Positions 55,823-56,662 of a stretch of 64,000 nucleotides of DNA are shown in pieces. The translations under genes were made by a program, and so were the position numbers. The notes beneath the pieces are model-generated. The model worked only from the letters and a program-made list of their open reading frames with translations, did no database searches and was not told the origin of the DNA. Origin of the DNA: Candidatus Thorarchaeota archaeon (GTDB taxonomy: Archaea > Asgardarchaeota > Thorarchaeia > Thorarchaeales > Thorarchaeaceae); contig DXJO01000008.1 of assembly GCA_019057475.1 (NCBI GenBank), positions 64,001-128,000 on the forward strand, written 5' to 3'. Position 1 is the stretch's first letter, and each line of letters starts with the position of its first letter.

Positions 55823-55866
55823 TGCTCTGCCGGTGTTGCATTGCTTTACACGCCGGCTTCACTGCA
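55823..55866 (-). promoter_or_regulatory. Eukaryote/Lokiarchaeota-type SECIS-like element (K-turn core, apical AAA)
   Basis: RNA UGC-AGU-GA-A-GCCGG-CGUGU-AAA-GCAAUGC-AACA-CCGGC-A-GA-GCA: UGC/GCA helix, 3-nt bulge, tandem GA/GA, GCCGG/CCGGC stem, AAA 11 nt after the UGA. Confidence 0.7.
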
Positions 55867-56662
55867 TCTTCTTGCTGAAGAGCTCCCATGCCTTTGGAAT
55901 GAGAGCCTCCGCATCCTCGTGGCTGATCCCTGATGAGATCACGACATCGACGAACTTGCTCTCGCCTTTGTCAAGGGTTCCAAGGTTCCACTGCACTGCG
56001 ACTGCAACATCCCTTGGTCCCAGCTCGAGGTTGTTCTTCAGGTCGCGGTAGGTATCTGTCACCTTTAGCTTCAGCGGAGGCGATATCTCCCAACCGGCTG
56101 GCTTGGGCTTTGAGGCCAGTTCCACATGGAGTGGCGCTTCATCCCAGATCCGCATGACGCCTGTTTCTGGGTCGAATCTAGCCATGTCGTCCCTGTAGCT
56201 GGGCGGACCGCCAATATCGAAGTCCATCAGGTTGTAGACCCTCAGGTCTTCCAGTGGCGAACCGCTTATATTCGTCGTCCGATGGCGCATCAACAGGAAT
56301 GGCCTGTTGAAGGTCCACAAGGCGATATCGAACATGGCCATTGGGACAGTCTGACCCTCTGGAGTGTATTCCAGAGCCAGTTCGAACCGTTTCTGCTTGT
56401 ACTCCCTCCGCTTCACGGAATAGGACTGCTCTTCTGTGGACATAGCACAGAAGACCTGTCCGCCGCTTCTGAATGTTGACCAGAAGCCACTTCTGTACCC
56501 GGCGGGATTCCGAAGCAGTAGGCGGTCTTTGCCGGTGGGATCAATCAAGCTGAGGCGTTTGATGTAGAAACCTAGGCGACCTTTTCGTCAGCTTGTGCAC
56601 TCGACATTGTACGCGAGGTCAAGCCTAGGACGTCGGCTGCCAGTCTCTAGTATCTCAGACAT
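55859..56662 (-). CDS. Candidate selenoprotein (267 aa, CxxU at residues 22-25) with beta-sandwich-like body
   Basis: ATG 56662, MSEILETGSRRPRLDLAYNVECTS-[TGA 56590-56588]-RKGRLGFYIKRLSLIDPTGKDR, continuing in frame into the called ORF 55859-56548; SECIS-like hairpin at the 3' end. Confidence 0.72.

Follow-up and report, generated by a model that had tools for sequence, protein, structure and literature searches.

A gene interrupted by a single in-frame TGA codon lies on the minus strand of the 64,000-nucleotide stretch analysed here (hereafter the window), which comes from contig DXJO01000008.1 of a Candidatus Thorarchaeota archaeon. The reading frame begins at an ATG (56662-56660), ends at a terminal TGA (55861-55859) and comprises 267 codons, with the internal TGA at codon 25 (56590-56588), three residues past Cys22 in the motif C22-T-S-U25. 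The start codon, the single TGA, the C-T-S-U motif and the 267-aa read-through product had all been proposed by a sequence-only reading of the window and were reproduced exactly. Comparative analysis indicates that this is almost certainly a genuine selenoprotein gene, in which codon 25 would specify selenocysteine (Sec). The principal features of the locus are listed below.

55859..56662, minus strand: full selenoprotein coding sequence, 267 aa; predicted stand-alone beta-supersandwich with a C-terminal helix
56588..56590, minus strand: in-frame TGA, codon 25 (Sec25); TGA or Cys across Asgard archaea
56597..56599, minus strand: Cys22 of the CxxU motif, candidate resolving Cys
55825..55862, minus strand: eukaryote-type Sec insertion sequence (SECIS) with a GUGA core whose UGA is the stop codon of the gene, an upper stem, an AAA bulge, a 2-bp apical ministem and GA; 8 of 8 stem pairs co-vary
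55801..55873, minus strand: wider RNA element, possibly a three-way junction (minimum free energy z -3.27), in which the last codons (55865-55873) may pair with 55801-55807; side hairpin at 55810-55821

A plain open reading frame (ORF) caller placed the start of the gene at a TTG (56548). All 56 homologs found in the databases were annotated as hypothetical proteins, those with an organism name being mostly from Thorarchaeota, and the near-full-length ones (220-241 aa, the longest 241 aa) all began past the TGA column. Standard annotation thus truncates the gene, as had been suspected. The database annotation agrees with an alternative in which translation truly stops at the TGA, the annotated later start is the correct one, and what precedes the TGA is a leader peptide or a conserved RNA. 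That many Lokiarchaeia genes have no ATG, GTG or TTG at least 10 codons before the TGA also speaks for it. Against a true stop, the TGA was never replaced by TAA or TAG: among 60 distinct Thorarchaeia orthologs, codon 25 was TGA in 59 and TGT in one. TGA terminates 506 of the 1375 long ORFs of the host genome (37%). The upstream codons evolve as protein and form two strands of the predicted model; residues 1-24 of the 60 orthologs had a mean top-residue frequency of 0.75, versus 0.60 for the body, together with full synonymous variation (e.g. six codons at R13, four at P12 and four at G8). Furthermore, natural Cys orthologs are continuous ORFs, and the presence of the SECIS element follows that of the TGA. 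With this evidence, it is very improbable that the TGA terminates translation.

Across the class, 69 of the 87 Thorarchaeia genomes searched carry the gene, almost always with exactly one TGA. The codon-25 TGA was found again in well over 100 independent assemblies and is therefore no assembly error. A Trp at the Sec column in one database homolog (P0067) proved to be TGA translated under code 4. The column held only TGA or Cys, and homology extended to both sides of it, including Cys (CxxC) orthologs; the outcomes that the sequence-only reading had named as arguing against a selenoprotein (other residues at the column, loss of similarity upstream, an assembly error) did not appear. The CxxU motif in that reading stood only in part. 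Cys22 is present in 59 of 60 Thorarchaeia orthologs, but the first Cys is missing from most members of the Lokiarchaeia family f22, so in the alignments Sec or Cys at position 25, rather than CxxU, is the invariant feature of the selenoprotein family.

The terminal codon was TGA in 59 of the 60 Thorarchaeia orthologs because it forms the core of the eukaryote-type SECIS, whose UGA was invariant in 52 aligned sequences; the sequence-only reading had made no mention of this element. Stop-overlapping SECIS elements have been described for Asgard selenoprotein genes (PMC11227280). The Thorarchaeia consensus consisted of RUGA, an 8-bp stem, GUAAA, a 2-bp ministem and GA. RNAalifold recovered the stem unaided, and two-sided changes were found at 8 of 8 pairs, with 94% of cells paired against 36-51% in slid controls; covariation was judged by the slid control, since related sequences inflated the shuffle control. 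The side hairpin at 55810-55821 was likewise conserved in Thorarchaeia (93% paired, with some covariation). In family f22 of the Lokiarchaeia, a 3′ element of the form AUGA..AAAAA..GA followed 60 of 62 TGA forms and 4 of 4 intron-bearing forms (see below), and none of 5 Cys forms. Rfam held no match to the SECIS of the family. The host genome was scanned with a SECIS pattern and a covariance model, which yielded no second new selenoprotein, although the pattern scan missed the SelD element and is thus not exhaustive.

Several members departed from the common arrangement. In a Thorarchaeia Cys variant with the motif CSSC (genome G035; L069:4936-5017, minus strand), the SECIS core and stem were retained and the apical loop was altered, possibly reflecting a recent change from Sec to Cys. 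SepSecS was not found in G035; a reading of this variant as loss of Sec use was dropped because that genome is incompletely assembled and its SelD retains a TGA. In a second Thorarchaeia member (genome G005; L037:4952-5773, minus strand), the motif is ILSU, and the frame enters the SECIS and ends at a TAA in the SECIS loop. After the stop codon of f30 members only a short GGCGG-GAA hairpin was seen.

The host genome contains the machinery expected for Sec use, which the sequence-only reading had proposed as a check. Genes for EFSec, SepSecS, tRNA-Sec and a PSTK-like protein are clustered on host contig C42 (G000:C42:58332-63369). The tRNA-Sec scored above the Rfam cut-off, and SepSecS, EFSec and SelD above their own cut-offs; the PSTK-like gene, which adjoins tRNA-Sec, was full length (E 5.5e-39) and below the cut-off. 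The host SelD has its own TGA (THGUSCK) and a similar stop-overlapping hairpin. No internal stop was present in the twelve VhuD, four Prx-like and five NiFe large-subunit matches. ARAGORN reported only 24 tRNA genes in this 96% complete genome, a low count consistent with the heavily intron-interrupted tRNAs of Asgard archaea (bioRxiv 10.64898/2026.10.13.758758).

A profile of the family matched 222 of 400 Asgard genomes, distributed by family as 72 of 85 in f1, 123 of 135 in f22, 11 of 14 in f21, 3 of 4 in f23, 5 of 5 in f30 and the single genome of f20. Weak matches in f2, f14, f16, f17 and f26, and some in f1, were rejected as orthologs and correspond to long multidomain paralogs. All families with full-length orthologs carry SepSecS except f20, which has EFSec, and families without SepSecS also lack the gene. 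This co-occurrence is given as a pattern and carries no statistic, because related genomes are not independent. Orthologs were 266-274 aa in Thorarchaeia and about 305-330 aa in Lokiarchaeia; one Sec form (G216; L098:2047-4164, minus strand) had a von Willebrand A domain fused at its C-terminus, about 720 aa in all.

Outside the Thorarchaeia, TGA occupied the homologous column in f22 (62 genes in frame; 66 Lokiarchaeia-family loci in all), f23, f30 and f20. CxxC was found there in f21, including DSAG12_02345 of Promethearchaeum syntrophicum MK-D1 and NEF87_004727 of Ca. Lokiarchaeum ossiferum, and in one further clade. This latter clade (P0076, P0079, P0101; L134-L138) is separate and has the motif CxxCxxC, and one copy follows a DsrE-like gene. 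Family f21 uses Cys yet retains SepSecS and a Sec-containing SelD. In a family tree whose backbone was poorly resolved and whose root was arbitrary, five lineages had Sec, and Cys appeared at three distinct positions, one of them nested among Thorarchaeia Sec forms. The simplest reading of this distribution is that Sec was ancestral and was repeatedly converted to Cys.

The Lokiarchaeia genes showed two further peculiarities. In 45 of 62 f22 genes an ATA precedes the TGA by 13 codons and follows, at a short distance, a GGAGG-type Shine-Dalgarno sequence (example loci L104, L108, L122 and L146). These genes often have an in-frame stop just 5′ of the ATA and no ATG, GTG or TTG at least 10 codons upstream of the TGA, and initiation at AUA is thus likely. 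Such a start may be part of the reason that the family escaped ORF-based searches. In addition, in four f22 genomes (G303, G274, G312 and G278) an insertion of 28-32 nt one base past the TGA breaks the frame. Each of the four was predicted to be a bulge-helix-bulge (BHB) mRNA intron:

L100:4848-4879, minus strand: predicted BHB intron, 32 nt, one base past the Sec UGA
L101:3689-3717, plus strand: predicted BHB intron, 29 nt, one base past the Sec UGA
L139:1206-1236, plus strand: predicted BHB intron, 31 nt, one base past the Sec UGA
L140:1753-1780, minus strand: predicted BHB intron, 28 nt, one base past the Sec UGA

Each insertion can form a 4-bp CUUG/CAAG helix, 3-nt bulges (AAU and AAA/AUA) and an inner hairpin, with a weak outer exon helix. 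Cuts past the second base of each bulge restored the frame and gave a product colinear with the uninterrupted orthologs, and removal by tRNA-endonuclease-type splicing is predicted. The Sec codon is part of the BHB helix, and all four genes retain the SECIS. The four genomes belong to one genus, and the introns thus probably derive from one event. No report of a BHB mRNA intron in Asgard archaea was found in the literature searched.

The structure of the product was approached through AlphaFold models of two natural Cys orthologs (pLDDT 92 and 88), both of which were all-beta with C-terminal helices. The models place the CxxU/CxxC motif in the loop that joins strands 12-21 and 28-39, which make up the first beta-hairpin. 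Both matched the N-terminal supersandwich and linker helix of GH15, GH94 and GH116 enzymes (Z 19-23, 9-13% identity), the best match being to the N-domains of glucodextranase and glucoamylase (Z 23.1, root-mean-square deviation 2.5, 226 residues, 12% identity). The likeness to the GH15 (1lf6, 1ulv), GH94 and GH116 domains, which have a galactose-mutarotase-like fold, covers the whole chain, including the helix after the sandwich. The match to the mutarotase (aldose 1-epimerase) fold itself was weaker (Z 13-16), and alignments A1 and A3 contained no invariant His, a residue of the catalytic His/Glu pair in the sandwich cleft of that enzyme. Unlike the glycoside hydrolase domains, the Asgard protein stands alone, bears Sec or Cys on its first hairpin, and shows no recognisable sequence similarity to PDB chains or Pfam models. 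The catalytic (alpha/alpha)6 barrel is absent from the ortholog chains, and the product is predicted to consist of one beta-supersandwich domain and has no evident signal peptide. The confident all-beta model with its terminal helix is not the alpha/beta fold of thioredoxin. The earlier guess of a beta-sandwich was borne out by models and structural matches, and the predicted supersandwich has no counterpart among known selenoproteins.

Sequence searches were less informative. Those of the PDB gave chance matches only, and the best Pfam (E 0.007) and NCBIfam (E 0.078) matches were unrelated and below cut-off; Pfam APS-reductase and NCBIfam aprB, both weak partial matches, were rejected as identities. 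An Atlas search with a database homolog returned only unnamed Asgard clusters above 0.9. Homology was detected over residues about 105-260 (E to 1e-16) with the N-domain of long, apparently secreted transglutaminase-like and carboxypeptidase-regulatory-domain proteins. Those relatives differ in being multidomain, and two that were inspected have signal-peptide-like N-termini and lack the CxxU/CxxC hairpin. Long Asgard paralogs of the selenoprotein family also exist.

Three further features were noted in the window gene, the first in its body and the others upstream of its start:

56207..56224, minus strand: DFDIGG motif, the best-conserved body stretch among Asgard members in the alignments
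56668..56680, minus strand: Shine-Dalgarno-like GTGAT ending 5 nt before the ATG, putative in function, present in most Thorarchaeia orthologs
56708..56715, minus strand: TATA-box-like TTTATATC, a possible promoter judged from sequence only

A GCATAGG/GCATTGG motif also lies 15-22 nt before the start codon in many Thorarchaeia orthologs (56677-56683, minus strand, in the window).

The function of the protein is most likely redox, though unproven. The favoured explanation of the whole, held with moderate confidence, is a Sec-containing supersandwich acting by a selenol/thiol redox mechanism; at a similar level of confidence, the protein would be a redox enzyme or redox switch built on a scaffold that binds a ligand, its catalytic selenol being served by a resolving Cys either nearby or distant. 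In this mechanism UGA25 would be read as Sec by tRNA-Sec and EFSec via the SECIS overlapping the stop codon. The selenolate would attack an oxidised substrate or a partner disulfide. Resolution of the adduct to a selenenyl-sulfide would then fall to Cys22 in Thorarchaeia and, in those Lokiarchaeia where the first Cys is missing, to a conserved Cys near the C-terminus. The sandwich, with its DFDxxG and GPxD acidic motifs, would provide the binding surface. Among the points in favour of this proposal, thiol oxidoreductases form the majority of prokaryotic selenoproteins (PMC13188914), and a second Cys is almost always present, either Cys22 in Thorarchaeia (59 of 60) or the C-terminal Cys in Lokiarchaeia TGA forms (61 of 62 in f22). 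The N-terminal CxxU following a strand is shared with SELENOW/Rdx and AhpD-type proteins, which are proposed as a working analogue, although the Asgard protein has another fold and no Pfam or NCBIfam match to them.

The position of the motif in the model also bears on an unlikely alternative in which Sec is a metal ligand, the CxxU-G hairpin forming a knuckle that binds Zn, Fe or some toxic metal; the site might be shared between the two subunits of a dimer, or with the C-terminal Cys. CxxC-G at the tip of a hairpin resembles zinc knuckles, the motif indeed sits between strands 12-21 and 28-39, and the CxxCxxC clade has an extra Cys. Only a single knuckle is present, however, and in 58 of 62 f22 forms the first Cys is replaced (by L, F, V, Y, I, M or W) with Sec retained, a pattern more in keeping with a catalytic nucleophile than with a chelate.

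The neighbouring genes varied by lineage. In Thorarchaeia the neighbourhood is fixed and uninformative, comprising a divergent coiled-coil gene and D-aminoacyl-tRNA deacylase, together with a convergent helix-turn-helix (HTH) gene. The order in the window (53901-64000: restriction-endonuclease-like, unnamed 166-aa, HTH, coiled-coil, D-aminoacyl-tRNA deacylase and further coiled-coil genes) was retained in 29-38 of 38 Thorarchaeia loci, several of the genes having no Pfam family. In f30 (L085:2938-6675 of G394, and G391, G393 and G395), a GcvH-like gene and SepSecS stand beside the family gene, and G394 and G395 also have a NifB-like radical SAM gene upstream. A gene of about 319 aa encoding a fusion of Roadblock/LC7 with a Ras/Rab-like GTPase was found at L095:2953-3909 and 31 other loci of Lokiarchaeia f21 and f22.

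These linkages suggest two further roles. The protein might be a selenium carrier or sensor that binds selenide or passes it on at Sec25, or whose UGA-dependent synthesis reports selenium supply. The adjacency in f30 to a GcvH-like carrier, SepSecS and a NifB-like gene accords with this, as do the restriction of orthologs to SepSecS-bearing families and the probable AUA starts and intron beside the UGA, which suggest tight expression control. Nonetheless, the linkage occurs in one lineage only, no profile match was found in the Sec-using families f4, f15, f18 and f19, and f21 uses Cys while retaining SepSecS and a Sec-containing SelD, making a selenium-handling role doubtful, slightly more so than metal binding. 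A role as redox-sensitive regulator or effector of the Roadblock/LC7-small GTPase fusion protein is suggested by the fusion gene directly upstream on the same strand at 32 of 40 non-Thorarchaeia loci (in f21 and f22). Such a neighbour does not occur in Thorarchaeia, f23 or f30, and the GTPase domain has no well-conserved Cys, the commonest (20 of 31 sequences) lying in the N-terminal part; this role is regarded as quite unlikely.

Several points weigh against a redox mechanism or against Sec insertion as described. We know of no redox protein with the supersandwich fold, whose PDB matches are enzymes acting on sugars. In L037 Cys22 is lost and there is no C-terminal Cys. Contact between Sec and the C-terminal Cys elsewhere is putative. 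None of the lineage-specific neighbours names a redox partner, f23 and f30 members showed no clear SECIS, the case for Sec insertion is a comparative one, and the redox activity is putative.

The family does not appear in published lists. Mariotti 2016 described five Loki selenoprotein families, and a SECIS-first search of early Loki data gave no further candidate (PMC4989117); Huang 2024 listed seven Asgard families, by homology to known families only (PMC11227280); and a 2026 review counted 11 archaeal among 119 prokaryotic families, several of the archaeal ones shared with bacteria (PMC13188914). The known Asgard selenoproteins are SelD, FrhA/VhuU, HdrA, FrhD/VhuD, Prx-like, an AhpF-N homolog and DsbA-like (PMC4989117, PMC11227280). 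They share with the window gene the recoding system and an eukaryote-like SECIS (AUGA/GUGA..GA), often overlapping a UGA stop, and HdrA and VhuD have CxxU as well. In contrast, the window protein has no Pfam or NCBIfam match to them, and its all-beta supersandwich differs from their thioredoxin, SelD and Fe-S folds. None of the 119 families was matched by Pfam or NCBIfam models, in a scan that did not extend to the few represented solely by CDD or PANTHER models. No Sec-containing bacterial or methanogen counterpart turned up, with no direct search of their genomes made. Further papers on Asgard archaea that were consulted name known selenoprotein families only, and nothing was found on the locus tags or on a selenoprotein with a supersandwich in literature whose coverage excludes most subscription papers. 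Given that limit the family is probably, though not certainly, unpublished, in line with the new family suggested from the sequence.

Taken together, these data make it probable that this is an ancient family, known so far from Asgard archaea alone, where its distribution is almost as wide as that of SelD, and that it represents the first selenoprotein with a mutarotase-like supersandwich. In Lokiarchaeia its expression would probably pass up to three gates: an AUA start, SECIS recoding and, in some species, tRNA-endonuclease splicing. The predicted BHB intron, if true, would be a rare archaeal mRNA intron with a recognition helix that includes the Sec codon. The more than 100 natural SECIS variants with strong covariation provide material for how archaea decode an eukaryote-type SECIS without SBP2, and both cultured Lokiarchaeia (MK-D1 and L. 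ossiferum) carry a plain CxxC ortholog that is expressible in E. coli. The finding enlarges the selenoprotein set of the closest microbial relatives of eukaryotes by a family that is represented in about 200 of the 400 Asgard genomes sampled and whose fold is without earlier example in selenium biology.
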